Below, one piece after another: positions 5,229 to 61,153 of a stretch of DNA of 64,000 bases (the stretch's first letter is position 1; each line of letters starts with the position of its first letter). Source of the stretch: a virus; IMG/VR virus record IMGVR_UViG_3300019477_000133, positions 6,076 through 70,075 of that record, one strand, 5' to 3'. The notes beneath the pieces are model-generated. The model saw only the letters and a program-made list of their open reading frames with translations. It was not told the DNA's origin and searched no databases. A program made the position numbers and the translations under genes.

Positions 5229-5295
5229 AGATTACGAGGACTGTTATAGATATTTTGTAGCAGTTCCTCATTTTATTTAACCAATACAGAATACA

Positions 5296-5901
5296 ATGGA
5301 AAAGAAGTATAAACTTTTAAAAGATGACTATATTGACTTTCATTTATACTATGATAGTGAAGATGAAAGTGAAATGCAAGAAGAATATAGACTTTATAGA
5401 ATACAAGCATTACGAGACTTTGGTGATGTTAAAAAAGGCGAATTAGGTGGATATATCCAAACCCAAAAGAATTTAAGTCATAGTGGAAATTGTTGGGTGT
5501 ATGATAATGCTATAGCTGGAGATGACTCTAAAGTTAAAAATAATGCTAAAGTGATGGATGGAGCTATTTTGAGAGGAGCAGCTGTTGTATCTAAGAACGC
5601 AGTGTTGACAAACAATGCTAAACTTGCGTCTTCTGCTATCGTTACTGATAACGCTGTCGTTGAATTTACTGATATTTATGGAGAAAACGTAATTAAAGAT
5701 AACGCTGTTTTGGATGGTGGTGAAATTTATGGCAATTTAGTTGTGAGTGGAAATGCTAAGTTATCTGGAGGTTTCATTTTCTTTGGTTATAAAAATGGTG
5801 AAATCAGTGGAAATATAGATTTAGAATTTAGTACGATTAGAAAATCATTCCGTGATAAATTTGAAACAAATGAAGAACTATTAAACTACATTAATAGTTA
5901 A
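5296..5901 (+). CDS. hexapeptide-repeat (left-handed beta-helix-like) protein
   Basis: repeats of the type NAKVMDGAILRGAAVVSKNAVLTNNAKLASSAIVTDNAVV... Confidence 0.45.
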   Translation: MEKKYKLLKDDYIDFHLYYDSEDESEMQEEYRLYRIQALRDFGDVKKGELGGYIQTQKNLSHSGNCWVYDNAIAGDDSKVKNNAKVMDGAILRGAAVVSKNAVLTNNAKLASSAIVTDNAVVEFTDIYGENVIKDNAVLDGGEIYGNLVVSGNAKLSGGFIFFGYKNGEISGNIDLEFSTIRKSFRDKFETNEELLNYINS

Positions 5902-21277: not shown

Positions 21278-22483
21278 ATGACAGTATCTAAGAAGAAGAG
21301 TAGTGGTAAGACTACAACAAAAACAAGAAAGTCAGATAATATTCAAAATGTAGAAATATCAAATCTTCCTGCAAAGAGAATTGATGAAAACGGAAACGTT
21401 GATACTACTGGTTTGACTACTATTGAGAAGAAGCGGTATAGAGATATAACATCAAGCTTGGATGTAAAGAATCCTATGACTGTTATGTCTTATGGTTCAG
21501 ATTTGCAAAAAGTAATGGATTCATATTCAAGTGAACTTCTCCAACACCAGATGTCATCAACAGTAAGTGGAGATACTTCAAAACTTATTAGTAAATTAAT
21601 GGGTGAACTGGAGAATATTGATGTTAATGATTTTAAGGTCCCTACACGCTTTAAAAAGTTCTTAATGTCATTTCCCCTAACTAAGAGTTTTGTTACCTCT
21701 GTAGCGGAAATAAAAGCGAAATATAACACAATCGAAAAGAATGTAGAGAATATCAAGCAAAAACTTGAAGCAACACGTACAATTGCTTTGCGTGACAACA
21801 ATCTTCTCGAACAACAATTCATTAATAACAAAGATTACGTAAACCAGTTGGAACAATTGATTATTGCAGGTAAGTTCAAAGTGGAAGAACTGGAAGAAGA
21901 ACTGAAAACTATGCGTACAAACGGTTCTGACATGATTGATATTAATGATACTAACAACTTTAAAGAAGCATTAGAAAAGCGTGTTACAGACCTTGTAATG
22001 CTACATCATGCTTTCAATCAATCATTATATCAGATTAGAATTATTCAACAAACCAACCTGCAAGATGCAAATAATACAGAATCACAGGTTTTAATGCTTA
22101 TTCCTTTTTGGAAAAATCAGTTATCACTAACAGTAGCATTATATAACCAGCAGCAAAGTATTAAAGCAAAACAAGCCGTTTATGATGCTATTAATAAGTC
22201 ATTAGTTAGCAACTCAGAAATGATGAAAACTCAATCAATAGAAGTTGCTAAACAGAACCAACGAACAGTTCTGGATGCTGAAACGTTAATGAAGACAACA
22301 AGAGATTTAATCGAAACTATCCAAGGTGTACAAAAAGTACAAGAGGAGGGTAAAAAGAAACGCATGGATGCAGAAGCAAAAATCATTGAATGGGAGAAGC
22401 AAATGAACCAAGCAATTCAAGGACTTACCAATAATAATGAAAGAATTGTGAGTCGAGAATTAATTGGTAATGAAAATAAATAA
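21278..22483 (+). CDS. hypothetical coiled-coil protein (possibly TelA-like)
   Basis: 401-aa, Gln/Asn-rich helical protein; family assignment uncertain. Confidence 0.45.
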   Translation: MTVSKKKSSGKTTTKTRKSDNIQNVEISNLPAKRIDENGNVDTTGLTTIEKKRYRDITSSLDVKNPMTVMSYGSDLQKVMDSYSSELLQHQMSSTVSGDTSKLISKLMGELENIDVNDFKVPTRFKKFLMSFPLTKSFVTSVAEIKAKYNTIEKNVENIKQKLEATRTIALRDNNLLEQQFINNKDYVNQLEQLIIAGKFKVEELEEELKTMRTNGSDMIDINDTNNFKEALEKRVTDLVMLHHAFNQSLYQIRIIQQTNLQDANNTESQVLMLIPFWKNQLSLTVALYNQQQSIKAKQAVYDAINKSLVSNSEMMKTQSIEVAKQNQRTVLDAETLMKTTRDLIETIQGVQKVQEEGKKKRMDAEAKIIEWEKQMNQAIQGLTNNNERIVSRELIGNENK

Positions 22484-24393: not shown

Positions 24394-24461
24394 GAAAAAT
24401 TTGGAGGTTTCAAAAAAAGTTAGTATCTTTGCATCACAATTAAGAAATAAGAGTTCTTTGA
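24394..24461 (+). promoter_or_regulatory. 68-nt promoter block (gaaaaatttggaggtttcaaaaaaagttagtatctTTGcatcacaattaagaaa...gagttctttga) duplicated at 27324-27391, where it sits 19 nt upstream of tRNA-Lys
   Basis: near-identical duplication; contains the -7-like tatctttgca. Confidence 0.55.
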
Positions 24462-24479: not shown

Positions 24480-24558
24480 GTCAAATATAATTAGGAAACG
24501 TACAGCAAAAGAATTTGAATAGGGTTCATGAGGGTTGGTTCGATTCCAAAATGTGACC
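24480..24558 (+). tRNA. tRNA-like element / possible pseudo-tRNA: acceptor-like pairing gtcaaat/atgtgac and a GGTTCGATTCC T-loop, but no canonical D or anticodon arm
   Basis: starts 19 nt after the promoter block, the same spacing as tRNA-Lys after the duplicate block; cloverleaf incomplete by hand. Confidence 0.2.
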
Positions 24559-24711: not shown

Positions 24712-25764
24712 ATGAGAATGAAGAAGTTTATTTTTATGACACTCATCTCAATGATGAGTTTTGTTAGTGCAAATGCACAGACAGCACTTCAAAGTACAAA
24801 GTTGATGGATAACACTTATGTAGGTGTAATGGGTGGTGTACACACCAACATGAAGCTTAATAAGGTATTTCCTCTCAACAGTTCAGTTGGAGTACGTGTT
24901 GGAAAAGAGATTAGTCCAGTATTCGGTATCCAATTTGCAGGTGTAGCTGCTCTTGGTGACAATTACGTAAATGACTCTCATACATTTATTAAGGCAGTAA
25001 ACGCTGAAATGAATGGTACAATTAATTGGAGTAACCTCATTTTCGGGTATAATGGTGTTCCTCGCAGATTCGAAGTTAGTTCAGTAACTGGTATTGGATG
25101 GTTGGCATTCCTTAACGGTTCACATCGTTCATATAATAATAATATGGGTGATGGAGACGAACTCACTGCAAAGACAGCACTCGAGTTTGCCTTTAATCTT
25201 GGTAATGCAAGGGCATGGCGTATTTTCGTACAGCCTGGTGTTTATTGGAACATGACACATGGTCCAGGTGATGCTGTACAATTTGGTAGCTCAGCAGCAC
25301 AGATGGGTGTTCAGGTCGGTGTTGATTACAAGTTTAAGACATCTAATGGTACACATAATTTTAAGATGTATAACATTGGTGACTATAACAATGAAATCAA
25401 TACACTTCGTAACGACCTATCTAAGAAGCCAAAGGAAGTTACAAAGGTTGTAGAGAAGATTGTAGAAAAGCAGAATGTTGTTAAGCAGAATGTGTACGTT
25501 ATCGCTTTCGATAATGATAAAGCAGAACTTAGCAATGATGCAAAGAATGTTCTCAATAGTATCGCTGCAAATACAGATGTAACTGTAGAGGGCTATGCTG
25601 ATGGTGTAGGTAGTGATACCTATAATCAGAATCTATCAGAACGTCGTGCAACCACTGTGACTAATTATCTTACACAGCGAAACGTGAATGTACGTAGTTC
25701 AAATGGTTTTGGTAAGACAGGAAAGTACTCAGCACGAGTAGTTATTGTTGAGCCAGTACGCTAA
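24712..25764 (+). CDS. OmpA-family outer-membrane protein (signal peptide, beta-barrel region, C-terminal OmpA-like domain)
   Basis: signal peptide MRMKKFIFMTLISMMSFVSANAQTA; C-terminus ...GYADGVGSDTYNQNLSERRATTV is the OmpA_C signature; locally higher GC. Confidence 0.8.
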   Translation: MRMKKFIFMTLISMMSFVSANAQTALQSTKLMDNTYVGVMGGVHTNMKLNKVFPLNSSVGVRVGKEISPVFGIQFAGVAALGDNYVNDSHTFIKAVNAEMNGTINWSNLIFGYNGVPRRFEVSSVTGIGWLAFLNGSHRSYNNNMGDGDELTAKTALEFAFNLGNARAWRIFVQPGVYWNMTHGPGDAVQFGSSAAQMGVQVGVDYKFKTSNGTHNFKMYNIGDYNNEINTLRNDLSKKPKEVTKVVEKIVEKQNVVKQNVYVIAFDNDKAELSNDAKNVLNSIAANTDVTVEGYADGVGSDTYNQNLSERRATTVTNYLTQRNVNVRSSNGFGKTGKYSARVVIVEPVR

Positions 25765-25923: not shown

Positions 25924-26091
25924 GGTCAATACAATTAAAGAAAATAACTATTGGTTACGTACAGCACGAAAAATTATAGTATTTATTTAACTTCCGATGT
26001 ACATAAGTTTTATAAACTTATTCAGTTTGAAATCGCTGTGATGATTTCCGTAACCTAATTTAGTTATTAAACTAAAAGAATAGAAAAAAAT

Positions 26092-26301
26092 ATGAGAATT
26101 GTTATTATCTTGTTGATTATTCTAATTTTTATATCATTTGGTATATTTATCAATGGTATAAGAAATTCTAAACTTAGAACGATACATAATGTTATGGAAG
26201 ATAACGAACATAATGATGAATTACGTAAACGTTCAAATCGTAGAAAAAAAGTTACTATCATAGAAGAGATGCCAGATAATAATGATAACACGGTGGAATA
26301 G
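26092..26301 (+). CDS. small membrane protein (doubtful); its 3' end overlaps tRNA-Arg
   Basis: 69-aa ORF with a hydrophobic N-terminus. Confidence 0.25.
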   Translation: MRIVIILLIILIFISFGIFINGIRNSKLRTIHNVMEDNEHNDELRKRSNRRKKVTIIEEMPDNNDNTVE

Positions 26302-26365
26302 CTCAACTGAATAGAGCAACGGCCTTCTAAGCCGTAGGTTGCGAGTTTGAATCTCGCTTCCATCA
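26292..26365 (+). tRNA. tRNA-Arg(TCT)
   Basis: acceptor ggtggaa/ttccatc, D gctc/gagc, anticodon stem acggc/gccgt with loop ctTCTaa, T-arm gcgag-tttgaat-ctcgc. Confidence 0.75.
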
Positions 26366-26384
26366 CATCATAACTCAATTTTTA

Positions 26385-26425
26385 CCACAAGTTAGATTTG
26401 TTTCTGCTTGTGGTGATTTTTTTTG
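26385..26425 (+). terminator. rho-independent terminator after tRNA-Arg
   Basis: ccacaag...cttgtgg hairpin plus a T9 run. Confidence 0.6.
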
Positions 26426-26442
26426 TATAAAACAATATGCAA

Positions 26443-26500
26443 TTATCAATAAATCCAATTAATCAATAAAAAAGATTGATATGTTGATAAAAAAATCAAC
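26443..26500 (+). promoter_or_regulatory. operator-like direct and inverted repeats (ATCAATAAA x2, TTGATA x2, ATCAAC) upstream of the HTH regulator gene
   Basis: aattATCAATAAAtccaattaATCAATAAAaaagaTTGATAtgTTGATAaaaaaATCAAc. Confidence 0.35.
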
Positions 26501-26534
26501 TTAAGATATATTTATTAATAAAAAAAATAAATAT

Positions 26535-26741
26535 ATGAACGGATTTGAAAATTGGATAAAAGATATATGTAAGAGAAAACGCATGAAATTAAAAGATGTA
26601 TCAACAAAGATGGGTGTTGAACCAGCTTCTTTAACAAGAACATTAAAAGGTGGAAACCCACGATTAGATACATTGGTAAAACTATCAGAAGCGTTAGAAG
26701 TAGAAATAACAGCTTTAATTCCACAGGAAATTAAGCCATAA
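26535..26741 (+). CDS. XRE/Cro-type helix-turn-helix transcriptional regulator
   Basis: KLKDVSTKMGVEPASLTRTLKGGNPRLDTLVKLSEAL is an HTH_3-like helix-turn-helix. Confidence 0.6.
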   Translation: MNGFENWIKDICKRKRMKLKDVSTKMGVEPASLTRTLKGGNPRLDTLVKLSEALEVEITALIPQEIKP

Positions 26742-27079
26742 TAAAAAAAATATTTATAAAATAAGTAACTTTTGATACATAGGTTATATTTATAATAAAA
26801 TTCATATAAAAAATGATACGTACATCAAATAAACAAAGTAATCAGCATAACATATTTGTTACATCCAACAAGTATGATAATGATGCTATGTTTTTTGAAT
26901 ACGACATAAATAATAATAATAATAATAGTATTTCAACAATACGGAATTTATATGAATGTATAACCTAAATTAAAAAGGGTTTTTGCACTTACTTCACTAA
27001 ATATATTTCCAAGCTGTTGAATAAACTTAAACAAAAGTTGATTTAGCAGCTTTTTTAGTACATTTACAATTAGACAATA

Positions 27080-27313
27080 ATGACAGTAGATAACCTTATA
27101 CCATTATTAAATGGTCATGCAGAATTAAGATGTGTCATAGAAAAGAAAATAGCTGAATACAAAATTATAGCTACTGATGGACACGAGTACTTAATAGATA
27201 TAGATATTAGTGACAAGAAAGATGTAAAACCTCAAAAATGCATAAAATGTGAATATATTAACGATTTACTAAGGAAAATCAACCAAAATAATGATTTTAT
27301 AAAAATAAAATAA
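27080..27313 (+). CDS. hypothetical protein
   Basis: 77-aa ORF. Confidence 0.3.
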   Translation: MTVDNLIPLLNGHAELRCVIEKKIAEYKIIATDGHEYLIDIDISDKKDVKPQKCIKCEYINDLLRKINQNNDFIKIK

Positions 27314-27323
27314 AAAAAATCAC

Positions 27324-27391
27324 TGAAAAATTTGGAGGTTTCAGAAAAAGTTAGTATCTTTGCATCACAATTAAGAAACAAGAGTTCTTTG
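27324..27391 (+). promoter_or_regulatory. second copy of the 68-nt promoter block, driving the tRNA cluster
   Basis: duplicate of 24394-24461 with 2 mismatches. Confidence 0.55.
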
Positions 27392-27409
27392 ACTTATTGG
27401 AACAACAGA

Positions 27410-27482
27410 TGCGCTCATAGCTCAGTTGGTAGAGCACCACACTTTTAATGTGGGAGTCTTGGGTTCGAGCCCCAATGGGCGT
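27410..27482 (+). tRNA. tRNA-Lys(TTT)
   Basis: acceptor gcgctca/tgggcgt (two G.U pairs), D gctc-agttggta-gagc, anticodon stem ccaca/tgtgg with loop ctTTTaa, T-arm ttggg-ttcgagc-cccaa. Confidence 0.8.
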
Positions 27483-27496
27483 ACAACTGAAAAAAA

Positions 27497-27649
27497 TAAT
27501 AGGTAGCCGTACTACCGAATTTACGCTTGTGGACTATCCTCCTATGGATGACTGATTGTAGCAATACAATGTACTAAAAAGTAATGATAGGTTGAAGCAA
27601 GAAGTGAAAAGTACCCAAATCATATATTTGCGTAGATTTTCATATACGG
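27497..27649 (+). ncRNA. orphan copy of the ~155-nt structured RNA found immediately 3' of tnpB (omegaRNA-like scaffold); no adjacent tnpB
   Basis: about 95% identical to 33871-34029 apart from an internal hairpin that differs with compensatory changes (attgtagcaatacaat versus attgagtagtaaactactcaat). Confidence 0.55.
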
Positions 27650-27853
27650 TCCTGAGTTCGAGTCCCAGTGGGCAACTCATACATTTACAAAAAGTAATAC
27701 CCATGCAAATGGTTTCTTGGCTAAGAATGATGCTAATTGTAATTTTAAACAAAACTAATTCAGTAATTGATAGAATTTAGTCGACATAAATTCTTGATAG
27801 CTACGTTGGTAACGTTACAACCAAATTATATCCTATTACATATAGGAGAATCA

Positions 27854-27927
27854 CAGTGCATTAGTTCAGTAGGTTAGAATACTGCCCTGTCACGGCATAG
27901 GTCACGGGTTCGAGTCCCGTATGCACT
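27854..27927 (+). tRNA. tRNA-Asp(GTC)
   Basis: acceptor agtgcat/atgcact, anticodon loop ctGTCac, T-arm acggg-ttcgagt-cccgt. Confidence 0.75.
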
Positions 27928-27936
27928 GCATAAAAT

Positions 27937-28031
27937 CTTCTGTGTGCTGTTATGGTATCAGACGTGCGAAAGCAGCATTGGTTTAATCCAAAAGAGCAGA
28001 GCGTTTAGTTGGTTCGAATCCAACCACAGAA
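27937..28031 (+). tRNA. atypical 95-nt tRNA-like RNA: perfect 7-bp acceptor ttctgtg/cacagaa and T-arm gttgg-ttcgaat-ccaac, with an abnormal anticodon/variable region carrying the motif aaaagagcag
   Basis: hand fold; anticodon unresolved; may contain an intron or insertion or be a tRNA-like ncRNA. Confidence 0.3.
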
Positions 28032-28044
28032 GATACTTACAACC

Positions 28045-28166
28045 ACCTCACTTAGCTCAGTTGGTTAGAGCGACGTTACCAAGAATTTTTCCTGTATGGA
28101 AAAGAGCAGCAAAGTTTAAATTTGATTTGTAATCCGTGTGTCATCGGTTCAAGTCCGATAGTGAGG
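28045..28166 (+). tRNA. atypical 122-nt tRNA-like RNA: acceptor cctcact/agtgagg (7/7), canonical D-arm gctc-agttggtta-gagc, T-arm atcgg-ttcaagt-ccgat, ~50 nt extra in the anticodon/variable region. Internal hairpin ttttc-ctGTAtg-gaaaa could be a Tyr anticodon arm. Shares the aaaagagcag...gttta motif with 27937-28031.
   Basis: hand fold. Confidence 0.3.
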
Positions 28167-28176
28167 TGGAATTTTA

Positions 28177-28248
28177 TTAGGGGATGGAGCAGAGGTAGCT
28201 TGCTGGGCTCATAACCCAGAGGTCGGGGGTTCGACTCCCTCTCCCCCA
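28177..28248 (+). tRNA. tRNA-Met/Ile2-type (CAT), copy 1
   Basis: anticodon stem ctggg/cccag with loop ctCATaa, T-arm ggggg-ttcgact-ccctc; one A.C mismatch in the acceptor stem. Confidence 0.65.
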
Positions 28249-28317
28249 ACAACTTAGGAAACAAACAGCAGATTTTCTCTTTTTTTATGGAATAAAAATA
28301 ATAATGTTTCCTTAACT

Positions 28318-28388
28318 TTGAGATATGGTGTAATGGTAACACTGTAGGTTTTGGTCCTGCCATTATAGGTTCGACTCCTATTGTCTCA
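28318..28388 (+). tRNA. tRNA-Gln(TTG)
   Basis: acceptor tgagata/tgtctca, D gtgt/acac, anticodon stem gtagg/cctgc with loop ttTTGgt, T-arm atagg-ttcgact-cctat. Confidence 0.75.
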
Positions 28389-28393
28389 ACAAA

Positions 28394-28467
28394 TGCTTTA
28401 GTAGCTCAGCTGGTTAGAGCACCTGACTGTTAATCAGGAAGTCGCAGGTTCGAGTCCTGCCTGAAGC
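28394..28467 (+). tRNA. tRNA-Asn(GTT)
   Basis: acceptor gctttag/ctgaagc, anticodon stem cctga/tcagg with loop ctGTTaa, T-arm gcagg-ttcgagt-cctgc. Confidence 0.8.
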
Positions 28468-28495
28468 GCATGGAAGTATCTTAAGAAGACTTTCA

Positions 28496-28539
28496 AGAGA
28501 GTGCCACCGAGTAATGCAAGCATAGGTGGACAACACTCT
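28496..28539 (+). other. nested hairpin (gagagtg-ccacc...ggtgg-cactctc) between tRNA genes; possible processing or structural element
   Basis: inverted repeats read directly. Confidence 0.3.
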
Positions 28540-28601
28540 CGTCCAAAGAAGTATGGTATTATGACATTATAAAATAGAGTATTACCTGAATCGCATAATT
28601 A

Positions 28602-28673
28602 TTGCAGGATAGAGCAGTGGTAGCTTGCTGGGCTCATAACCCAGAGGTCGGGGGTTCGACTCCCTCTCCTGCA
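28602..28673 (+). tRNA. tRNA-Met/Ile2-type (CAT), copy 2, with encoded CCA
   Basis: acceptor tgcagga/tcctgca, D gagc-agtggta-gctt, anticodon loop ctCATaa, T-arm ggggg-ttcgact-ccctc, followed by ACCA. Confidence 0.8.
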
Positions 28674-28680
28674 ACCATTC

Positions 28681-28767
28681 TGGAGAGTTGGCTGAGTGGC
28701 TTAAAGCGCTGGTCTTGAAAACCAGAGGACAGTAAAATGTTCCAAGAGTTCGAATCTCTTACTCTCC
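28681..28767 (+). tRNA. tRNA-Ser(TGA)
   Basis: acceptor ggagagt/actctcc, anticodon stem ctggt/accag with loop ctTGAaa, long variable arm, T-arm aagag-ttcgaat-ctctt. Confidence 0.8.
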
Positions 28768-28775
28768 TCTTATAT

Positions 28776-28867
28776 TGGAGATTTAAGCCTAATTGGTAAG
28801 GCAGCAGTTTGCTAAACTGCCAGTAATCGTAGTAATATGGTGTATAGGTTCGAATCCTATAATCTCC
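28776..28867 (+). tRNA. tRNA-Ser(GCT)
   Basis: acceptor ggagatt/aatctcc, anticodon stem gcagt/actgc with loop ttGCTaa, long variable arm, T-arm atagg-ttcgaat-cctat. Confidence 0.75.
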
Positions 28868-29294
28868 GCATTTGCGATTTTTGAATGGAATAATAGAAAA
28901 ACAAAAATGAAGTATGGATTTTGTACCTAAATGGTTTTATTGAGGGATTTTCCCCACATACATTTTTTAGAATAAGGAAATATTTTAGTTTTTCGAAAGA
29001 TTCTATTTTAGAAAAGATTGTATTATTAATTTAAAGAGTAAGTTATGAAAAAGAATTATGTAACACCAGAGGTGGAAATTTACACGGCTTTAGTGGAGCA
29101 GCCATTTATGAGTTTATCTACAGTTAAATTTGGTGACGTGACAAATGGTGGAGAAAATACTGACGAGAACGGTGTACTGCCATCAGATACTCCTACAGAC
29201 GATGAGTGGGGTGAAATTGGTTGGGACTAATTACAACAACTATCGAGAGTATTAATTATCAAGCGTAACAAATTAAAAATGAATAATATAAAAA

Positions 29295-31175
29295 ATGAAT
29301 AAACTAATAGTAAAATCAATGCTACTTATTATAGTAGCAGTACCTATGCTGGTATCATGTAGTTCAGATGATATTGTTGACCACGTGCAATCGGTTGAAC
29401 AGCAAAGTAATGTAACAACTATTTATGTGCACACTCCGCAGAAGCCAGAGACTCGTGCTACGGTAGTGGGTGCTTATGATGTGCCTAATGTAGTAAACAG
29501 CACGTATCCAACATCAGGCAAAATAACAAGTTATAAGTACATTTGGTCCGTTGGCGACAAGCTTTATACGTATGACCCAATCAACGATTTTGTCAGCACA
29601 TTTATATGTAAGTCAGTTGATGGCGATGCAGGAGCTACATTTATTTCTACAAATGCTAAGTGGACTACAGGCAGTAAAATCTACCTGTTTGCATCAAGAG
29701 AGGAGCCTACAGTGATTAACCATAATGAGGTGAATTTCAATTATATCAATCCAGCTAACGCAGGCTTTGCATGGGGAGATGCTGACAAGAACACGGCAGT
29801 GCTTACCAATACAAACTTTACAGGTGTAGGCGAGATAGAAAAGTGCCCAGAACTTGCTAATAATGGTACTCCTGTAAGAATGGAATGTACACTTGATGTT
29901 ACGCCATCTATGACAATGTACTTCCGTGATATGATGCATGATTATCAGAGCGTTTCATTGACACAAAGTGTAAAGAAAGGTGCATACGATGGTTATTATG
30001 ACGGTGCAACATACAACTTGCTTACTAAGAAGTACACTCCAGGCATGCTTCGAAACACATGGCTTACTCTATCAAATAAGAATCCAGATAGTTTCGGCAA
30101 AGGAGTGATTTATATGCCTTTGGCTGAAACGAAGTACGACAAAGTAACTATCTCTCTTATTGGTAAAAACAAGAACATAGAGGGTGATGAGACTACAGTA
30201 CGCAGCATCAATATAAAGAAGAATTTTGATGCAACTGCACAGAGTAACTATTACAACCTCGGCGATATGGCTAAATGGCCTAAGGATGCAGACCATCTAT
30301 ACATCATTGGTGACGCAACACCTTTTGGATGGGCACAGTCTACTTCAAAAACTGATAATAGTACACGTATTTGGCCTTTTACTCAGAAGATGAAGAATGA
30401 AGGAAATGGCGTATTTACATATATTGGTCCAGCTTTAGGTTCTAATGCGCCAACACAAATGTACCAACCATTGGATACAATACATCGGAATATAAGTAGT
30501 GGCAATGGAACATTTAAGTTCTACTTCTTCAATAACGGTCTTTATGAGTGTGCAGGTCTTCTGCGTGATACAGGCAATGAAACTGATAATGTGACTACTG
30601 CTTACTATTCTACTTATGATAATGCAAAACGTTATGCAGATTCTAAGTGGAAAGTAAATGAAGCTAAGGTTCATAAGATTACGGTTAACGTGCGTACTAA
30701 TAAGGTGACAGTAGAACCTTACACAGGTGCACCACTGCCTGAACTGAAGATTACAAAACAAGATGGTGCTAAGGTAACTATCAATAAACTTTGGTTGTTC
30801 GGTTCAGCAACTCCTGATAATGTTAACTATATTTCTACCAGACCCCTCGCATTTAATTATAATGCAGTAGACGACCCAAATCACTTTGTATGGGAAGGCT
30901 ATTTGAAAGCTGGTTATGTTAAGTTTCCCTATATCTTTGGTGATTACGATTTTCATCAGTCAAGTTATTTGATGCCTATAGACGGTAATACTACAGCCCC
31001 ACTTACAGTTGGTGTGTTTTATGTACATCCAGCTTCTATTATAGATGGCACCCCTATGAAAATGAAAGTCGGGGTAGATGGAGGTCATGATAATCAGTGG
31101 AAAATAACTACTCCTGGTAAATACAGAATAGTTGTAGACGTAAATAAAATGGAAGTTACTTTTATAAAGAAGTAA
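29295..31175 (+). CDS. large surface lipoprotein (lipobox LVSCSS)
   Basis: signal peptide plus Cys: MNKLIVKSMLLIIVAVPMLVSCSSDD; 626 aa; locally higher GC than the phage average. Confidence 0.6.
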   Translation: MNKLIVKSMLLIIVAVPMLVSCSSDDIVDHVQSVEQQSNVTTIYVHTPQKPETRATVVGAYDVPNVVNSTYPTSGKITSYKYIWSVGDKLYTYDPINDFVSTFICKSVDGDAGATFISTNAKWTTGSKIYLFASREEPTVINHNEVNFNYINPANAGFAWGDADKNTAVLTNTNFTGVGEIEKCPELANNGTPVRMECTLDVTPSMTMYFRDMMHDYQSVSLTQSVKKGAYDGYYDGATYNLLTKKYTPGMLRNTWLTLSNKNPDSFGKGVIYMPLAETKYDKVTISLIGKNKNIEGDETTVRSINIKKNFDATAQSNYYNLGDMAKWPKDADHLYIIGDATPFGWAQSTSKTDNSTRIWPFTQKMKNEGNGVFTYIGPALGSNAPTQMYQPLDTIHRNISSGNGTFKFYFFNNGLYECAGLLRDTGNETDNVTTAYYSTYDNAKRYADSKWKVNEAKVHKITVNVRTNKVTVEPYTGAPLPELKITKQDGAKVTINKLWLFGSATPDNVNYISTRPLAFNYNAVDDPNHFVWEGYLKAGYVKFPYIFGDYDFHQSSYLMPIDGNTTAPLTVGVFYVHPASIIDGTPMKMKVGVDGGHDNQWKITTPGKYRIVVDVNKMEVTFIKK

Positions 31176-31187
31176 GTATGCTTAACA

Positions 31188-31216
31188 AAGGGGAATTTAA
31201 TATAGTTCCCCTTTTA
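31188..31216 (+). terminator. rho-independent terminator
   Basis: aggggaa...ttcccct hairpin plus TTTT. Confidence 0.55.
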
Positions 31217-31217
31217 A

Positions 31218-31291
31218 GGACTTGTAGCTCAGTTGGTCAGAGCAGCAGTCTCATAAACTGAAGGTCCCTGGTTCAAGCCCAGGCTGGTCCA
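31218..31291 (+). tRNA. tRNA with a CAT anticodon (third copy; Ile2-lysidine- or Met-type)
   Basis: D gctc-agttggtca-gagc, anticodon loop ctCATaa, T-arm cctgg-ttcaagc-ccagg; one mismatch each in the acceptor and anticodon stems. Confidence 0.6.
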
Positions 31292-31309
31292 CTTAAAAAA
31301 ATCAGTAAT

Positions 31310-31570
31310 ATGATAGAAATGATATTATGTTTATTACTTGGAATTATTATTGGAATCATACTTTTTCCAATTGGAATATTTTTAAGAGCAAAAAATTCAG
31401 GTTGGGATGACAGTAATGTTTTTAATATTTTTCATGTATTATTTCATTTGGCTTTGCATCCAGATGATTTCACTAAGATGTATTACAAGAATGGTAGTAA
31501 ACCATTCTGGTATCTGACGAAAGATGAGTTCTCAGAAGTTTTAAGAATAAGACCAACTTCAGAAGAATAG
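31310..31570 (+). CDS. small membrane protein
   Basis: 86-aa ORF with a hydrophobic N-terminus. Confidence 0.3.
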   Translation: MIEMILCLLLGIIIGIILFPIGIFLRAKNSGWDDSNVFNIFHVLFHLALHPDDFTKMYYKNGSKPFWYLTKDEFSEVLRIRPTSEE

Positions 31571-31594
31571 ATATTAATTTAAATCAAAGCATAT

Positions 31595-32422
31595 ATGAAG
31601 AAAATTGTTACGTTTATTGCTACTGCAATCTTTGCTGTAACAGCATTAACAAGCTGTTCATTTACAAACCCATCATACGATGAAGAAGTAGCTTTAAAGA
31701 TGAAGCCATGGTTTGTTGGTAGTACTGGTGTAGACCCTACCCCTGTTAATGACTTAACATGTATTGCATGGACAACATCAGCTGTGAGTTTCTATATTCT
31801 TCCTCAAAAGGTGGAGTTCAAATTCGATGACTTGCTTTCAAACGACAACACACCTTTGGATGTAAGCATGTATATGGTCTTGCAGGTTCAGAAAGGTCAT
31901 ACTCCTGAATTGTTACAAAACTATGGTGAAGACTGGTATAAGACATTCATTGAACCATATTTCAAGAATAAGGTACGTGAATACGTTTCTACATGTTCTC
32001 CATTTGATTTGATGAGTAATCGTGAAGTACTTATTCAACTTGACACTGAAATTGCTAAGTCAATGAGAATTTATATTCAGCAACTTTCAAAGACAAGAGG
32101 TAACTTCCCTGTTACTATTCAGCAGGTTACTACAGATAGGGTAATGCCTAACAAGGAACAACTTGATGAAATGAACAAGACAGCTGCTGCTATTCAAGCA
32201 AAGCAGACACAGGAGAAGAAAGCTGAAATGGAGTTAGCAAGAGCCAAAGCTGAAAAGAATAAGGCTATTGCAGATAAGGCTTATATGAACGAATTGGCAC
32301 TTTCTCCGCAGCAGTTTATTCAACTTCGTGTATGGGACGTTATCGCAAGTAAGCAGGGTGCTAATATTGATGTACTTGTTGGTTCTGGAGAAACTCCCAT
32401 GTGGAATATTAAACAGAAATGA
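31595..32422 (+). CDS. lipoprotein with a C-terminal coiled-coil (possibly SPFH/band-7-like)
   Basis: MKKIVTFIATAIFAVTALTSCSF lipobox. Confidence 0.5.
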   Translation: MKKIVTFIATAIFAVTALTSCSFTNPSYDEEVALKMKPWFVGSTGVDPTPVNDLTCIAWTTSAVSFYILPQKVEFKFDDLLSNDNTPLDVSMYMVLQVQKGHTPELLQNYGEDWYKTFIEPYFKNKVREYVSTCSPFDLMSNREVLIQLDTEIAKSMRIYIQQLSKTRGNFPVTIQQVTTDRVMPNKEQLDEMNKTAAAIQAKQTQEKKAEMELARAKAEKNKAIADKAYMNELALSPQQFIQLRVWDVIASKQGANIDVLVGSGETPMWNIKQK

Positions 32423-32439
32423 TAATTAAATAATTAATA

Positions 32440-32512
32440 GCTGAATGAGCACGATTGGTTGTGCAACTGATTTGTAATCAGTAGGCTGTGGGTTCGAGTC
32501 CCACATTCAGCT
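32440..32512 (+). tRNA. tRNA-Thr(TGT)
   Basis: acceptor gctgaat/attcagc, D gcac/gtgc, anticodon stem actga/tcagt with loop ttTGTaa, T-arm gtggg-ttcgagt-cccac. Confidence 0.8.
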
Positions 32513-32517
32513 CATAT

Positions 32518-32590
32518 TGAGTAGTAGCTCAGGTGGTAGAGCGATGGTTTGAAGGTCCATGCGTCGGTGGTTCGAATCCACCCTATTCAA
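32518..32590 (+). tRNA. tRNA-Phe(GAA)
   Basis: acceptor tgagtag/ctattca, anticodon stem atggt/tccat with loop ttGAAgg, T-arm ggtgg-ttcgaat-ccacc. Confidence 0.8.
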
Positions 32591-32615
32591 CTAAACATAT
32601 GAAAATATGATATTT

Positions 32616-32688
32616 AGCCCCATCGACAAGCGGTTTAAGTCGCCACTCTTTCACGGTGGAGTCACGAGTTCGAATCTCGTTGGGGTTA
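32616..32688 (+). tRNA. tRNA-Glu(TTC), copy A
   Basis: acceptor agcccca/tggggtt, anticodon stem ccact/ggtgg with loop ctTTCac, T-arm acgag-ttcgaat-ctcgt. Confidence 0.7.
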
Positions 32689-32716
32689 CTAACAATTCTA
32701 AAAAAAAATAATAAAA

Positions 32717-33859
32717 ATGTTAAGAGGGATTAAGATAAGATTATATCCAAACAATACACAAGAGCAGGTACTCAATAAGGTGCTTGGGTGTTACCGTTTT
32801 GTTTATAACCAAATGCTTGCTCGAAAACAGAATGCTTATAAAACAGATAAAACAAACTTATCTGTTACCGATTTATCAAAATGGTTTCATGGAACATTGT
32901 TAAAGGATGAACAATATGCTTGGCTGAAAGAACAGAACACGAAGGTGATGAAACAAGCAATCAGACAAATGGATGGTGCTTACCAAAACTTCTTCAAACA
33001 ACATAATGGTTTTCCAAAATTTAAAACAAAGAAGGATAAACAATCGGCATTATTCCCATATGAAGCCATTTCCAAAAAGAATACATTTGAAACCAAACAT
33101 ATCAGTTTGACAACCTCATTAAAGAATATTAAGTTCCGTTGTTCAGATTTGTATTTCAGAAGATTACAAAAGTATAATAAGAATATAAGAAGTGCTACCT
33201 TATCGAAGACCAAGAGTGGTAATTTCTTCTTATCTATCCTTGTTGAATTGGATGATACTGAATTAAAGAAATTTGAACATACAAACAAGCAAGTTGGTAT
33301 TGACCTTGGAGTCAAAGATTTTGTAATCACGTCTGATGGTGAGGTATTTGATAACAAACATTTTTTCAAAGAGAAAGAGAAAGAAGTAAGGATGCTTCAA
33401 AGACAATTGTCAAGAAAAGTTAAAGGTTCTAACAATTGGAATAAGCAACGTGTTAGAATTGCAAAAGCATTTGAAAGACTTACCAACCAAAAGGAAGCCT
33501 ATATACATAGTGTTGTGAATGAGTTATTAACTTATTATGACACTGTATTTATGGAAGACTTGAATGTGAAAGGAATGCTAAAAAATCATCATCTTGCCAA
33601 AGCTATACAAGAGGTTAGTTTCTATAAGTTCAAGGAAATATTGTTTAGCAAGTCACTTGTTAACGATAAAAGTGTTGTGTTTATTGAAAGATTCTATCCA
33701 TCAAGCAAGACTTGCTCACAATGCGGTTATAAGAAACGAGACTTGAAGTTAAGTGATAGATTTTGGATTTGCCCTGAATGTGGGACAAAACATGACAGAT
33801 ATGTTAATGCTGCCATAAACATATTGTTGGAAGGTCAACGAATACTGGCAGCGGTGTAA
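32717..33859 (+). CDS. tnpB: TnpB (OMEGA RNA-guided nuclease, IS200/IS605 OrfB family), catalytic motifs intact
   Basis: N-terminus IKIRLYPNNTQEQ; RuvC-I VGIDLGVKD; RuvC-II VFMEDLNVKGM; zinc finger CSQCG...CPECG; RuvC-III HDRYVNAAINIL. Confidence 0.85.
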   Translation: MLRGIKIRLYPNNTQEQVLNKVLGCYRFVYNQMLARKQNAYKTDKTNLSVTDLSKWFHGTLLKDEQYAWLKEQNTKVMKQAIRQMDGAYQNFFKQHNGFPKFKTKKDKQSALFPYEAISKKNTFETKHISLTTSLKNIKFRCSDLYFRRLQKYNKNIRSATLSKTKSGNFFLSILVELDDTELKKFEHTNKQVGIDLGVKDFVITSDGEVFDNKHFFKEKEKEVRMLQRQLSRKVKGSNNWNKQRVRIAKAFERLTNQKEAYIHSVVNELLTYYDTVFMEDLNVKGMLKNHHLAKAIQEVSFYKFKEILFSKSLVNDKSVVFIERFYPSSKTCSQCGYKKRDLKLSDRFWICPECGTKHDRYVNAAINILLEGQRILAAV

Positions 33860-33870
33860 TAAAAGAAATA

Positions 33871-34029
33871 ATTAGGTAGCCGTACTACCGAATTTACGCT
33901 TGTGGACTATCCTCCTATGGATGACTGATTGAGTAGTAAACTACTCAATGTACTAAAAAGTAGTGATAGGTTGAAGCAAGAAGTGAAAAGTACCTAAATC
34001 ATAGATTTGCGTAGATTTTCATATACGGT
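33871..34029 (+). ncRNA. candidate omegaRNA (right-end RNA) scaffold of TnpB; begins 11 nt after the tnpB stop codon
   Basis: conserved with 27497-27649 including a covarying hairpin; the position matches where IS605 omegaRNAs are encoded. Confidence 0.55.
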
Positions 34030-34065
34030 GTGACGGTTCGATTCCTTTCGTTCGCTCATTTTCAT

Positions 34066-34137
34066 AGCGCCATCGACAAGTGGTTAAGTCGCTAGCCTTT
34101 CACGCTGGAGTCACGGGTTCGAATCCCGTTGGCGTTA
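34066..34137 (+). tRNA. tRNA-Glu(TTC), copy B (diverged from copy A)
   Basis: acceptor agcgcca/tggcgtt, anticodon stem ctagc/gctgg with loop ctTTCac, T-arm acggg-ttcgaat-cccgt. Confidence 0.7.
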
Positions 34138-34272
34138 CTAATTTGAATGTTGTTCCAATAAGCAAAAAATATATATTCAACAAAATATTATGGATACAAG
34201 TTTTATCACTATTATTATTTGTATTATTGTTGGAATTTTATCAGCAAATTATCTTAAAAATAGTTTTAAAGA

Positions 34273-34707
34273 ATGATAGTACAAGATTTAAAGATAGGTT
34301 ATACGGTTTGTACAGTGACAAGTTTTGGGAGACTAACTATGCCAATGTACATTGCAGGCATTCTTAATGATGGTACTATTTATCTTGACTTCGATAATAA
34401 CGAAGGAGATATGTGGGAAGTTGATATTAAAGATATTGCGCCTGTTAGAATAACGGAAGATATTTTAAGCGATTTCAGTTTTAAAAGAGAATTAAATACT
34501 GAAATGCCTACATATAAAATACCAGATAGTACTATTGAAAGCTATATAGTTGCTACAGATAATGAATGTACATCTTTCTGGTTGACGAATGCTTGTAATG
34601 GAGAATATACAGATAAAAGTATAGGTAATAAGACCTTCAAGTACATACACGAATTGCAGGAATTATTTTATCAAAAATTCAATAAACTTTTACTTATCAA
34701 TATATGA
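34273..34707 (+). CDS. hypothetical protein
   Basis: 144-aa ORF. Confidence 0.35.
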   Translation: MIVQDLKIGYTVCTVTSFGRLTMPMYIAGILNDGTIYLDFDNNEGDMWEVDIKDIAPVRITEDILSDFSFKRELNTEMPTYKIPDSTIESYIVATDNECTSFWLTNACNGEYTDKSIGNKTFKYIHELQELFYQKFNKLLLINI

Positions 34708-35348
34708 AACTACTTGGTTCACATAATAGTTTAAGTTATCTTAGACCTAAAAAATGGTATATGTATCCTTTCATTTTTACTGCTAAATGTCAGAAAGTGA
34801 ATTATAAGGAACAATATAAAAACTATAATATTAGAGTATTTGACCTTAGAGTATGGTTTGACAAGGATGGTAACTTAGAAGTACGACATGGTGCAATGGT
34901 ATATAACATTGACCTAAATGGTGTGTACGAGTTTTTACATTATCTTAATAGTAAGACAGATTCCTATGTAAGAATTATACTTGAAGAAGATAATTTGTCA
35001 AAGCGAGAGAAAAATTCCGCTTGGAAAGAAATACTATTTGAAAAGTTTTGCACTTCTATTGAGACTTTATTTACAAATGTTTATTTCTTTGGTGGAAGAA
35101 GAAAGTTTGATTGGTTGAGAATACATGATTTTAAACATGATGATATTCCTCTTTTAGACTTATATTCAAGTACTACAAGATTTTTTGGTAAAGCAATTTT
35201 TGAAAAAGGAATTAATATGATTCTGAATATGGCAGATGATTGGTATCCTTGGTTGTATGCAAAATTTCACAATAAGAAAAATTATCAGGAATATATAAAT
35301 AATGATAAAGAAGAATGTCTTATGTGTGACTTTATAAACATTAGATAG
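34704..35348 (+). CDS. PLC-like phosphodiesterase (PI-PLC X-domain-like), paralog of 12353-13303
   Basis: GSHNSLSYL and IRVFDLRVWFDKDGNLEVRHG motifs. Confidence 0.4.
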   Translation: MKLLGSHNSLSYLRPKKWYMYPFIFTAKCQKVNYKEQYKNYNIRVFDLRVWFDKDGNLEVRHGAMVYNIDLNGVYEFLHYLNSKTDSYVRIILEEDNLSKREKNSAWKEILFEKFCTSIETLFTNVYFFGGRRKFDWLRIHDFKHDDIPLLDLYSSTTRFFGKAIFEKGINMILNMADDWYPWLYAKFHNKKNYQEYINNDKEECLMCDFINIR

Positions 35349-37227: not shown

Positions 37228-37441
37228 TAATAAATATCTATCTGAATATATAATTTAATATTTGTTAACTATTAATATTTGGATAAATAAAAACATTTAG
37301 TTAACTTTGCAATTGTTATTTGAAAAGATGATGAAATAAAAAAAATTAGTAAATTAGACATAAATATGATGCATGATAGTAAATTTTTTAAAAGTAAAAT
37401 ATATTTTAAATGTTTGTTTTTCAACAAGCTATAGATAGTAT

Positions 37442-37741
37442 ATTGTTAGAAGTATTGTACCGAAAGGTAATCACAACTTGTGGGACATGGAGGAAAAACG
37501 ACCACTTATTGTTAGAAGTATTGTACCGAAAGGTAATCACAACTATGTCGCAGAACTATCAATTGAAACTGGAATTGTTAGAAGTATTGTACCGAAAGGT
37601 AATCACAACGGACAACAAGCAGATAACACACGTTATAAGATTGTTAGAAACTCTTTACCGCAAGGTAATCACAACGTAGGGCAAAAGACAATTAACGCCT
37701 TGAATGTTGTTAGAAATAATATACCGCAAGGTAATATAAAG
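37442..37741 (+). CRISPR. CRISPR mini-array 1: five 36-nt repeats (ATTGTTAGAAGTATTGTACCGAAAGGTAATCACAAC; the last two degenerate) and four 30-nt spacers; the repeat 3' end GGTAATCACAAC is Cas13b (VI-B)-like
   Basis: exact 66-nt periodicity, spacers all 30 nt and unrelated to each other; repeat hairpin TACC-GAAA-GGTA with a GNRA loop; repeats degrade toward the 3' end. Confidence 0.85.
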
Positions 37742-59005: not shown

Positions 59006-61153
59006 ATGCGTACTTTACTAATTCTTAGAGGTTGTATGGGCAGTGGTAAGTCTACTTTCATTAAGGAAAATGGTCTTACTGATTACACATTGTCAGCCGA
59101 TGATATACGTTTAATGTTTCATTCTCCAAAGATGAATGAAGAGGGCGATATGACTATTAGCGCACGTTCCGATAAAATGGTATGGGATACATTGCATACT
59201 ATGCTTGAGAACCGTATGCGTAATGGTGATTTCACTGTTATTGATGCTACACATAAGACATCTAAGGCTGTATCTAAGTATGTAGAATTAGCTGACAAGT
59301 ATCGCTATAATTGTTATCAGCATAATGTCGAGGCAACCTTGGATGAATGTTTGGAACGTAATTTGTTACGTGACCCAGTAAGACGTGTTCCAGACATTGA
59401 TATTCGTCGTGCATACAATATGCTTCAAGAAAATAAGTTGTCTAATCGTTTCAAGGAAGTTAATGATGTAGATGACATTCTCAATTATTACATTACCGAT
59501 GCTTCTGCATACAAGGAAGTAAAGATTATAGGTGATGTACATGGTTGTCACACATGCCTTTTAGAAGCTATTGGTGGCTCTTTAAACCCAGACGTGTTAT
59601 ATGTATTCGTTGGTGATTATTTCGACCGTGGTATCGAAAATAAAGAAGTGTATGAGTTCCTATTGTCACATTATAATGATGACAACGTGGTCCTTCTTGA
59701 AGGAAATCACGAGAAGCATATCTGGCGTTTGATTAACGGTGAGGAGATAACTTCAGAATACTTCAAGATGACACTTGATGAGATAACCAAGGTTTATCCA
59801 TTGGAACAGGTTCGTAAGGAGTTAAAGAAAATTTACTATCGTATGCGTCAGTGTTTTGCATTCACATACCGTGGTAAGAAATACTTGGTAACACATGGTG
59901 GACTTACATCTGTTCCAAATCTTACAACTATTCCAACAAACGACATGATTAAGGGTGTTGGGGGATATGATATGGAAGTAGATAAGATATATGAAGATAA
60001 TTATTTGCTTGGGAAGTGTCAGGACTTTATACAAGTACATGGTCATCGCAATACTCTTTCTACCGAACATTCAATTTGTCTTGAAGATTGTGTTGAATTT
60101 GGCGGTAACTTAAAGGTTTTCTCTATAACACCAGAATATGCTTCTATATTAAAATACGAAAATAAAGTGTTTAGTATAGATAATATGAATGCTTTTCAGC
60201 AAGTAGTATATAAGGTTGATGACCCAGAAGTTAAGAAGATAATGAATAGTCGTCTTGTTAATGTAAAGGGTTGTAAGCATAACATGTACTCTATCAACTT
60301 TAATCGTAATGCATTTATTGGAAAGAAATGGAACTTTGCTACTATCAAGGCACGTGGTTTATTTGTTGATAAGAATACAGGAGAAGTAAAGATGCGTTCT
60401 TATGATAAGTTCTTTAATATTGATGAACATAAGACAACTAAGAGAAATAAACTTGAAGAAACTCTTAAGTTCCCAGTAAAAGTAACGATAAAGGAGAATG
60501 GATATCTTGGAATTATGTCAGTAGTAGACAATCAGTTAGTATTTGCTTCCAAAACAACTGACAGTGGTCCTTTTGCTGAACGTTTTGAACGTATTTTTAA
60601 CGAAACTGTTAGTAAGCACGATAAAGACCTATTGAAGAATATCCTGAAGAAAGAGAATGCTTCGGCTGTGTTTGAAGTGATTAGTCCTACAGAAGACCCA
60701 CATATTATTAGATATGAAAAGGAAGAAGTGGTATTGCTGGACATTATCCATAATGTGCTTAACCTTGGTGAAAACTATACAGAAGAGTCAGATAAGTTCA
60801 AGAATTTCTTAAGAGAAAATACATCTTTGAGAATGCCAGACGAATTAGTTATTAATACTAATGATGAGTTATGGGAATACCTACGGACTAATATAGGAAC
60901 TAATGATTCCGTAGAAGGTGTTGTAGTCACAGATGCTACTGGATTCAAGTTTAAAGTAAAGTTCAATTACTATCTAATGGTGAAGAACCTTAGACGTATT
61001 ACTCAGATATTCAGAAAGTGTAAGCGTGATGGTACGCCATTTAACGAAAAAATATGTCGTAATGATATGGAAAAGAATTTCGTTAATTTCCTTGAAAAAG
61101 AAGATGATGGAGAAATGAGTATCATTGATTTATATGATAAATTTCAAAAATAA
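59006..61153 (+). CDS. pnkP: polynucleotide kinase-phosphatase with a C-terminal nucleotidyltransferase (ligase-like) domain (bacterial Pnkp-like RNA repair enzyme)
   Basis: P-loop LILRGCMGSGKSTF; calcineurin-like phosphoesterase motifs GDVHGC / GDYFDRG / GNHE; ligase motif I-like KVTIKENGYLG. Confidence 0.65.
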   Translation: MRTLLILRGCMGSGKSTFIKENGLTDYTLSADDIRLMFHSPKMNEEGDMTISARSDKMVWDTLHTMLENRMRNGDFTVIDATHKTSKAVSKYVELADKYRYNCYQHNVEATLDECLERNLLRDPVRRVPDIDIRRAYNMLQENKLSNRFKEVNDVDDILNYYITDASAYKEVKIIGDVHGCHTCLLEAIGGSLNPDVLYVFVGDYFDRGIENKEVYEFLLSHYNDDNVVLLEGNHEKHIWRLINGEEITSEYFKMTLDEITKVYPLEQVRKELKKIYYRMRQCFAFTYRGKKYLVTHGGLTSVPNLTTIPTNDMIKGVGGYDMEVDKIYEDNYLLGKCQDFIQVHGHRNTLSTEHSICLEDCVEFGGNLKVFSITPEYASILKYENKVFSIDNMNAFQQVVYKVDDPEVKKIMNSRLVNVKGCKHNMYSINFNRNAFIGKKWNFATIKARGLFVDKNTGEVKMRSYDKFFNIDEHKTTKRNKLEETLKFPVKVTIKENGYLGIMSVVDNQLVFASKTTDSGPFAERFERIFNETVSKHDKDLLKNILKKENASAVFEVISPTEDPHIIRYEKEEVVLLDIIHNVLNLGENYTEESDKFKNFLRENTSLRMPDELVINTNDELWEYLRTNIGTNDSVEGVVVTDATGFKFKVKFNYYLMVKNLRRITQIFRKCKRDGTPFNEKICRNDMEKNFVNFLEKEDDGEMSIIDLYDKFQK

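Follow-up and report, generated by a model that had tools for sequence, protein, structure and literature searches.

A TnpA-less TnpB–omegaRNA element in the tRNA operon of a large phage: a probable IS607-family homing remnant with tRNA-derived candidate guides

Transposons of bacterial chromosomes and plasmids are known to home by means of TnpB and its guide-bearing RNA, the omegaRNA. The catalytic centre of the best-matching TnpB structure, that of ISDra2 from the IS200/IS605 group, consists of D191, E278 and D361 (PMC10097598), and mutation of any of the three catalytic residues abolishes activity in TnpB and Cas12 (PMC10705468). Elements of the IS607 group have GG at their ends and insert at GG (PMC13565253); those that encode TnpA and TnpB are associated with a right-end RNA (reRNA) of the RAGATH-18 type and with a transposon-adjacent motif (TAM, a short motif that TnpB requires beside its target) of AGGAG or GAGGG (PMC11061315; review PMC13565253). 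Here we analyse a tnpB gene and its neighbouring omegaRNA in a 64,000-nt stretch of phage DNA (hereafter the window), which corresponds to positions 6,076 to 70,075 of IMG/VR virus record IMGVR_UViG_3300019477_000133. The parts are those of known TnpB–omegaRNA and IS607 systems, and their setting is a phage tRNA cluster. We consider it probable that tnpB and the omegaRNA are the remnant of an IS607-family element without TnpA, a homing element that is fixed in the tRNA operon of a large phage, from gut or mouth and with a Bacteroidota host, and that was recently disabled in the window phage. This reading is built on observed part identities, an insertion site, matching empty sites in related phages, covariation in the RNA and an Asp-to-Tyr change in the protein. 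The features at the locus are as follows.

32616–32689, + strand: tRNA-Glu(UUC) copy 1, directly upstream of tnpB
32717–33859, + strand: tnpB, 380 aa, with D196, E281, a CxxC...CxxC zinc finger and Y362 (TAT codon at 33800–33802)
33870–34029, + strand: omegaRNA scaffold copy 1, ending ...ATATACGG(T), recognised by the shared scaffold and by covariation
34030–34058, + strand: candidate guide 1, what is left of a disrupted tRNA-Gly(UCC), its 3' third with the variable-loop remainder, T arm and acceptor strand
34066–34138, + strand: tRNA-Glu(UUC) copy 2, at whose 5' end RNase P, if it processes the transcript, would leave a guide tail of no more than 36 nt

An earlier note, made by a model from the sequence and its open reading frames (ORFs), had taken the 380-aa ORF for an intact TnpB with all the hallmarks of that family. 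Pfam matches to HTH_OrfB_IS605 (PF12323, 2.2e-18), OrfB_IS605 (PF01385, 2.4e-23) and Cas12f1-like_TNB (PF07282, 3.5e-19), all above the curated cut-offs, together with a match of residues 5–372 to the ISDra2 TnpB structures 8BF8, 8EXA and 8H1J (E=1.6e-50), confirm that the ORF is TnpB. It has the HTH/REC, RuvC and zinc-ribbon (TNB) architecture of these proteins, and ISDra2 TnpB, with the same domain order and length, is its best natural structural relative. RuvC-I D196, RuvC-II E281 and the zinc finger are present as described, but the catalytic Asp of RuvC-III, two residues ahead of NAA, is replaced by Tyr (HDR-Y-VNAAINIL, HDRYVNAAINIL). This residue, Y362, aligns with position 361 of the 408-aa ISDra2-numbered chain and is thus the equivalent of D361. 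The RuvC D-E-D triad is incomplete, and on closer alignment the nuclease can no longer be called intact.

The substitution is confined to a single allele. A protein search returned 6721 relatives at E<=1e-60, and residue 362 was Asp in 43 of 45 family members and Asn in one, with Tyr in the window protein only. The window's exact protein is designated P0001 and its 96%-identical sister P0002, and L numbers denote loci or contigs of related phages. P0002, the nearest relative, has Asp at 362 and occupies the same syntenic site in Human Microbiome Project contigs (including L174). Between the window tnpB and the P0002 gene there were 33 synonymous and 17 nonsynonymous codon differences, which gives a rough estimate of ~0.16 for the ratio of nonsynonymous to synonymous rates (dN/dS). 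This synonymous excess indicates that tnpB has been under purifying selection and that the change from Asp to Tyr, which looks like a very recent inactivation in the window phage, is young. The exact Y362 protein is also encoded on ENA contig L177, so that a simple sequencing error is less likely; the site was counted for two samples (ENA and JGI). Binding of RNA and DNA has probably been retained by the Y362 protein and cutting lost.

The segment 3' of tnpB, at 33870–34029, recurs at 27497–27650, and a 40-mer taken from it was found exactly twice in the window against 0 expected. The two copies are near-identical and differ mainly by a swapped, still-paired hairpin tip (ATTGAGTAGT/ACTACTCAAT versus ATTGTA/TACAAT), in agreement with the covarying repeat reported previously. 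Both copies terminate in ...TTTTCATATACGGT and are followed by sequence resembling a tRNA 3' half. To define the family, IMG/VR was scanned with the TnpB protein, which yielded 39 loci; with loci found by a 25-mer from the RNA core and other loci that were fetched, the dataset comprised 81 distinct combinations of element and flank. All 81 contained a conserved block of ~130–155 nt that extends up to ...TAC(G/T)(G/A)T, with unrelated sequence beyond it, and the right end of the element reads ...TACGG in most copies. A conserved structured 3' RNA followed by a variable guide is the arrangement expected of TnpB.

Covariation was assessed on an alignment of 34 sequences (A2) with RNAalifold, the 3' hairpin being added by hand. 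RNAalifold returned four helices with compensatory changes. Over the 32 family pairs, 96.9% of cells were paired and 18 pairs were compensatory, changing on both sides, while 0 of 500 shuffles reached any of these measures and slid partners paired in just 41–52% of cells. The proposal of a structured RNA directly 3' of tnpB is therefore borne out by covariation across the family and, judged from its sequence, the element consists of an omegaRNA scaffold with a guide behind it. Single-sequence minimum free energy folds failed to reproduce the covariation-supported structure and were left unused. A scan of 26000–35000 against Rfam (E<=1) returned tRNAs and weak tRNA-overlapping matches, mostly tRNA antisense, with no omegaRNA family. 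The scaffold thus matches no Rfam omegaRNA or reRNA family at this threshold, a point of difference from both ISDra2 and IS607. The homologous stretch in the phage Lak-A1 is translated through as protein, but the same frame in the window carries TAA, TAA and TGA, which indicates that conservation acts at the RNA or DNA level; these three in-frame stops and the covarying stems rule out a C-terminal protein extension of the Lak-A1 style. At L022 (4150–4303), the first omegaRNA stem is a mismatched hybrid of two family variants (GGTGT...CTACC), which suggests recombination between element copies within one genome. Several element copies (L007, L016, L022 and one solo) are present in contig 3300045988_152231.

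The earlier note had placed the element in the IS200/IS605 group. As in ISDra2, the omegaRNA lies at the gene 3' end, and the DNA next to the right end serves as the guide, which matches an uninterrupted target. The transposase and the ends differ, and from these the element family is assigned to IS607 instead. In L021 and L041, an ORF of 205–208 aa with a MerR-type helix-turn-helix and a Resolvase domain lies immediately upstream of tnpB, as TnpA does in IS607 elements, and remnants of this TnpA ORF were found in L012, L013 and L023. Relatives of the window element are thus paired with a serine-recombinase TnpA, not with the Y1 (HUH) TnpA of ISDra2, and their junctions have GG in place of TTGAT. 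No Y1 TnpA or AT-rich TAM of the IS200/IS605 kind was seen at the loci, where neighbours are of the resolvase type and junctions are GG, the search for Y1 TnpA being less than exhaustive. In full copies the left end opens with GG|GTTATTAAC and the right end closes with ...TACGG. Comparisons of empty and filled sites at tRNA-Gly and tRNA-Tyr agree in showing insertion at GG without target duplication, and no terminal inverted repeats were seen at the junctions. The family departs from described IS607 elements in that junction flanks are not G-rich beyond GG and that its home is in phage tRNA operons, with at least 10 independent sites in or beside tRNA genes. The window copy itself has no TnpA: tblastn of the 64-kb window detected neither tnpA nor a second tnpB, in line with the earlier report that no tnpA lies nearby. 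Full elements have a left end of at least 100 nt, or a left end plus tnpA. In the window, only an A-rich spacer of 27 nt (32690–32716) separates tRNA-Glu copy 1 from the tnpB ATG, so that the left end is almost wholly missing.

The sequence beyond the right end had been proposed as a guide resembling a tRNA T arm. Its first 16 nt, GTGACGGTTCGATTCC, were queried against IMG/VR and were found within an intact tRNA-Gly(UCC) in seven syntenic contigs (L048, L049, L072, L074, L076, L077 and L085), which shows that the flank consists of the T arm and 3' acceptor strand of that tRNA. In these seven contigs tRNA-Gly(UCC) is directly upstream of tRNA-Glu, in the order Thr-Phe-Tyr-Gly-Glu. The intact gene reads ...CT(G/A)GG|TGTGACGGTTCGATTCCGTTCG..., or at greater length ...AAGCT(G/A)GG|TGTGACGGTTCGATTCCGTTCGTTCGCTCA, and the window junction reads ...ATATACGG|TGTGACGGTTCGATTCCTTTCGTTCGCTCA. 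This comparison puts the right end at the GG of the tRNA-Gly variable loop and makes the guide the rest of the tRNA. Guide 1 agrees with intact tRNA-Gly(UCC) at 16/16 positions over the first 16 nt after GGT and at 32/33 overall, with GG preceding the match. In the seven related contigs the guide therefore equals the sequence beside a candidate TAM in an uninterrupted target, as in other TnpB systems, and the suggestion that the element homes into tRNA loci gains support from this comparison. An empty and filled pair at tRNA-Tyr has the same GG junction as tRNA-Gly. L042–L045 and the sister contigs L174–L176 share the window's junction, down to a flank identical over 33 nt. The 5' part of tRNA-Gly and tRNA-Tyr were not found in the window. 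We also considered whether this flank arose, like an integrase att site, by duplication of the 3' end of the tRNA upstream, and rejected the idea, as the fragment derives from tRNA-Gly and not from tRNA-Glu or tRNA-Phe.

The second scaffold copy has no tnpB of its own and lies behind another tRNA gene of the same cluster.

27411–27484, + strand: tRNA-Lys(UUU), with T-stem allele TTGGG/CCCAA
27497–27650, + strand: solo omegaRNA scaffold copy 2, which lacks an upstream tnpB and starts 12 nt after tRNA-Lys, ending ...ATATACGG(T)
27651–27679, + strand: candidate guide 2, resembling the 3' part of tRNA-Lys (T arm and acceptor strand); read together with the T at 27650 it is TCCTGAGTTCGAGTCCCAGTGGGC

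Copy 2 retains 30 of the 32 family pairs, and all related contigs that span the tRNA-Lys site have a solo omegaRNA there. At least 16 solo copies were confirmed among the 81, and their pairing (95.7%) was similar to that of copies linked to tnpB (96.2%). Guide 2 matches the intact tRNA-Lys(UUU) of L043, L044, L045, L074, L077 and L085 at 23/24 positions, with GG before the match in five of these six contigs and AG in L043. Against the window's own tRNA-Lys, mismatches fall at guide positions 3, 6, 14, 16 and 19. The combination of guide and tRNA-Lys allele in L043 and L044 is the opposite of that in the window, and L179 shows yet another. Four phages have a guide derived from tRNA-Lys, and in each of them positions 3 and 6 of the guide are mismatched to the resident allele. 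For tRNA-Lys(UUU), four T-stem alleles, all perfectly paired, were present among nine phages, compared with one or two alleles for the other single-copy tRNAs of the cluster. This pattern, seen in a small sample, fits escape from RNA-guided targeting, or may have arisen by paralogue gene conversion. A duplicated tRNA 3' end of the integrase att style is possible at the tRNA-Lys site.

Related phages display a series of states at the site occupied by tnpB in the window.

L072, L076 and L085: empty, Phe-Tyr-Gly-Glu
L048, L074 and L077: mini-element before Tyr, made up of a short left end and omegaRNA and lacking tnpB; it lies between Phe and Tyr, and nt 1–2 of tRNA-Tyr are the GG that closes its right end
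L049: the same mini-element, with the right end abutting the tRNA-Tyr anticodon arm
L043 and L045: mini-element abutting the tRNA-Gly fragment
L022/L044, L174 and the window: tnpB plus omegaRNA, next to the tRNA-Gly fragment

All the mini-elements have one and the same left junction, and the flank on the right-end side shrinks stepwise, so that the guide changes at each step. The same kind of series was seen at the tRNA-Lys site. These states may have arisen by TnpA-mediated adjacent deletion, by cutting and repair, or by independent events. In L044 (8774–8847; L022/L044), the ortholog of the window's tRNA-Glu copy 1 has the anticodon UUU and is called tRNA-Lys by ARAGORN, with a body like that of tRNA-Glu.

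One promoter motif is placed so as to precede the whole tRNA and tnpB block.

27331–27362, + strand: promoter motif of the Bacteroidota type (TTTG-N20-TATCTTTG), preceding tRNA-Lys(UUU) and the solo omegaRNA

The distance to tRNA-Lys(UUU) is 48 nt, and no other such motif lies closer to the block on its upstream side. Motifs of this type numbered 16 in the window against 4.2 expected, 15 of the 16 being on the + strand, and they point to a Bacteroidota host. None was found between 27362 and 37278, and no + strand terminator-like site was detected within 27000–35000. A sigma-70 promoter scan was uninformative, with fewer matches than in shuffles. A block of ~60 nt that contains the promoter is repeated, at 24400–24460 and 27333–27400. 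Searches of GenBank phages gave distant matches only, to Lak megaphages of Prevotella (~65% nucleotide identity over tnpB), and a tail-fibre ORF did not help to place the phage. Related IMG/VR and ENA contigs reach 300–400 kb. The tnpB of Lak-A1 has an in-frame TAG, consistent with amber recoding, and at its locus L001 further TnpB-like ORFs of other subfamilies (43–348 and 5136–5891) lie near the homologous element.

Other features of the window were recorded in passing. TelA-like, OmpA-domain and SPFH/Band-7 proteins are encoded among the tRNA genes (21278–22483, 24712–25764 and 31595–32422). ARAGORN and Rfam did not report two tRNA-like genes at 27937–28036 and 28042–28171, in each of which the acceptor strands are complementary and the T arm is perfect; the extra 25–55 nt inside them may be an intron or an insertion. 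An orphan hairpin resembling a T arm (GTTGG TTCGATT CCAAA, 24534–24550) lies ~60 nt upstream of tRNA-Lys(CUU). In a 715-aa ORF at 59006–61153, kinase (AAA_33), metallophosphatase and T4-type RNA ligase 1 domains are joined in one protein, which resembles a Pnkp/Rnl1 tRNA repair module. A CRISPR-like mini-array at 37442–37675, beside a Bacteroidota-type promoter motif at 37278–37309, is made up of four repeats of 36 nt (ATTGTTAGAAGTATTGTACCGAAAGGTAATCACAAC; the fourth is degenerate) and three spacers of 30 nt. In repeat length, spacer length and 3' end it resembles Cas13b (type VI-B) arrays. In L012 (2382–2875), repeats of this type form a longer array, with a period of 66 bp and at least 4.6 copies, directly upstream of tnpB.

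How such an element would work can be outlined from its arrangement. The right end lies at the GG in the variable loop of the phage tRNA-Gly(UCC) gene, and tRNA-Tyr and the 5' two-thirds of tRNA-Gly, both of which sister phages retain, have been lost. Because the 5' part of tRNA-Gly is gone, the omegaRNA would read into the leftover T arm and acceptor strand, which would become the guide. It would be co-transcribed with the tRNAs, and RNase P acting at tRNA-Glu copy 2, 36 nt downstream, could trim the guide tail. With a TAM containing GG, the ribonucleoprotein of a sister phage with the D-E-D triad would recognise GG and the intact tRNA-Gly(UCC) of co-infecting relatives, and the cut would result in homing, with recombinational repair copying the element, or else in damage to a competitor genome. 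A second guide, directed against the tRNA-Lys allele of sister phages, would come in trans from the solo omegaRNA behind tRNA-Lys(UUU). The Y362 copy would bind without cutting, or would have no function at all. This scheme resembles that of T4 SegB and other free-standing homing endonucleases of phages, in which the gene lies in a phage tRNA cluster, the predicted target is a tRNA gene of relatives lacking it, and homing or marker exclusion is the expected outcome of co-infection. It differs in that the target would be recognised by an RNA guide and not by the protein, with flanking DNA setting the specificity, and in that solo omegaRNAs can supply extra guides.

Several observations weigh against an active homing element. 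Homing, expression and cleavage are what we infer from sequence. The Y362 substitution predicts loss of cleavage and, since it replaces a residue essential for activity, homing could not operate from the window copy, which, with its left end and TnpA gone, could not transpose either. The only sequence common to the junctions is GG, from which alone the TAM is deduced. For tRNA-Gly(UCC), one T-arm allele was found in seven phages, without escape diversity, and there is thus no sign of ongoing selection by guide 1. In other phages (L178, L181, L183 and L184), 3' fragments of tRNA-Lys that start from the anticodon stem occur free of any omegaRNA, so that tRNA fragments in such clusters must arise by other routes too. 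A decaying IS607 remnant without function, which landed in an insertion-tolerant tRNA cluster, shed its left end together with tnpA and is at present losing the activity of tnpB, its guides being accidental, would account for the truncated left end, the absent TnpA, D362Y, the nested flank deletions and the deletion of tnpB already seen at the same site in L043, L045, L048, L049 and L074. We regard this as unlikely, though as a serious competitor, given that the 33 synonymous against 17 nonsynonymous differences from the sister allele, solo omegaRNAs that are as well paired as linked ones and persist at the tRNA-Lys site in all related contigs examined, and a non-random pattern of guides and alleles at tRNA-Lys all speak for maintenance.

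The window protein might instead serve as a nuclease-dead binder like TldR, blocking transcription or replication at the tRNA-Gly and tRNA-Lys genes of co-infecting phages, or at related sequences, with its two guides. Phage-borne nuclease-dead relatives of TnpB are known (PMC10705468), and the window TnpB shares with TldR a damaged RuvC site, the lack of a transposase and its location in a phage. Its single catalytic substitution lies in a full-length ORF with an intact zinc finger, and was recovered from the ENA contig as well, at a site counted for two samples. TldR is characterised by a dead RuvC site throughout a clade and by a fixed non-transposon partner gene or target, whereas here one residue has changed in one allele (P0001), the 96% sister and 43/45 relatives keep Asp, no partner or cargo gene is associated and the guide does not lie at a promoter; the nearby D360 might also partly compensate for the lost residue. 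This explanation appears improbable. Cleavage of host DNA, which the earlier note had raised, in the form of guides directed at host tRNA genes, is the least credible alternative and very improbable indeed. T-arm sequences are common across tRNAs, and the 16-mer occurs in many unrelated viral and prophage tRNAs. In a scan made for guide 1 only, which covered 185,579 species with one genome for each, GG plus the 16-nt guide gave 19 matches against an estimated ~17 by chance, and none was in Bacteroidota. With matches in these genomes near chance level and exact matches in sister phages, in synteny, the cognate targets would be sister phages and not the host. The reading as a TnpA-less IS607-family homing element, recently disabled in the window phage, therefore remains the one we favour.

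A wider suggestion, which we put forward tentatively and with more doubt than conviction, is that related large phages wield TnpB and omegaRNAs against each other's tRNA genes. It would fit that guides are drawn from tRNA T arms, that omegaRNAs without tnpB in the tRNA operon would form a small set of trans-acting guides, and that deletions adjacent to the right end would repeatedly make new guides. Compensatory escape in the T stem of tRNA-Lys(UUU), with each guide matching the allele of a rival and not the phage's own, would fit as well. The literature that was searched contained no account of such an element in a phage tRNA operon, of guides made of tRNA sequence, of solo omegaRNAs, of an allele series or of a fresh catalytic knockout, and the Jug phage paper makes no mention of TnpB or tRNA. 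The comparative data place a TnpB–omegaRNA element in a phage tRNA operon where filled, empty and intermediate alleles have all been sampled naturally, and the D362Y allele forms, with the D362 sister to which it is 96% identical, a natural pair of inactive and active forms. This offers a test system for RNA-guided nucleases as homing or exclusion devices between co-infecting phages, for the interplay of tRNA processing and guide maturation, and for solo omegaRNAs acting in trans, a possible step toward guide arrays.

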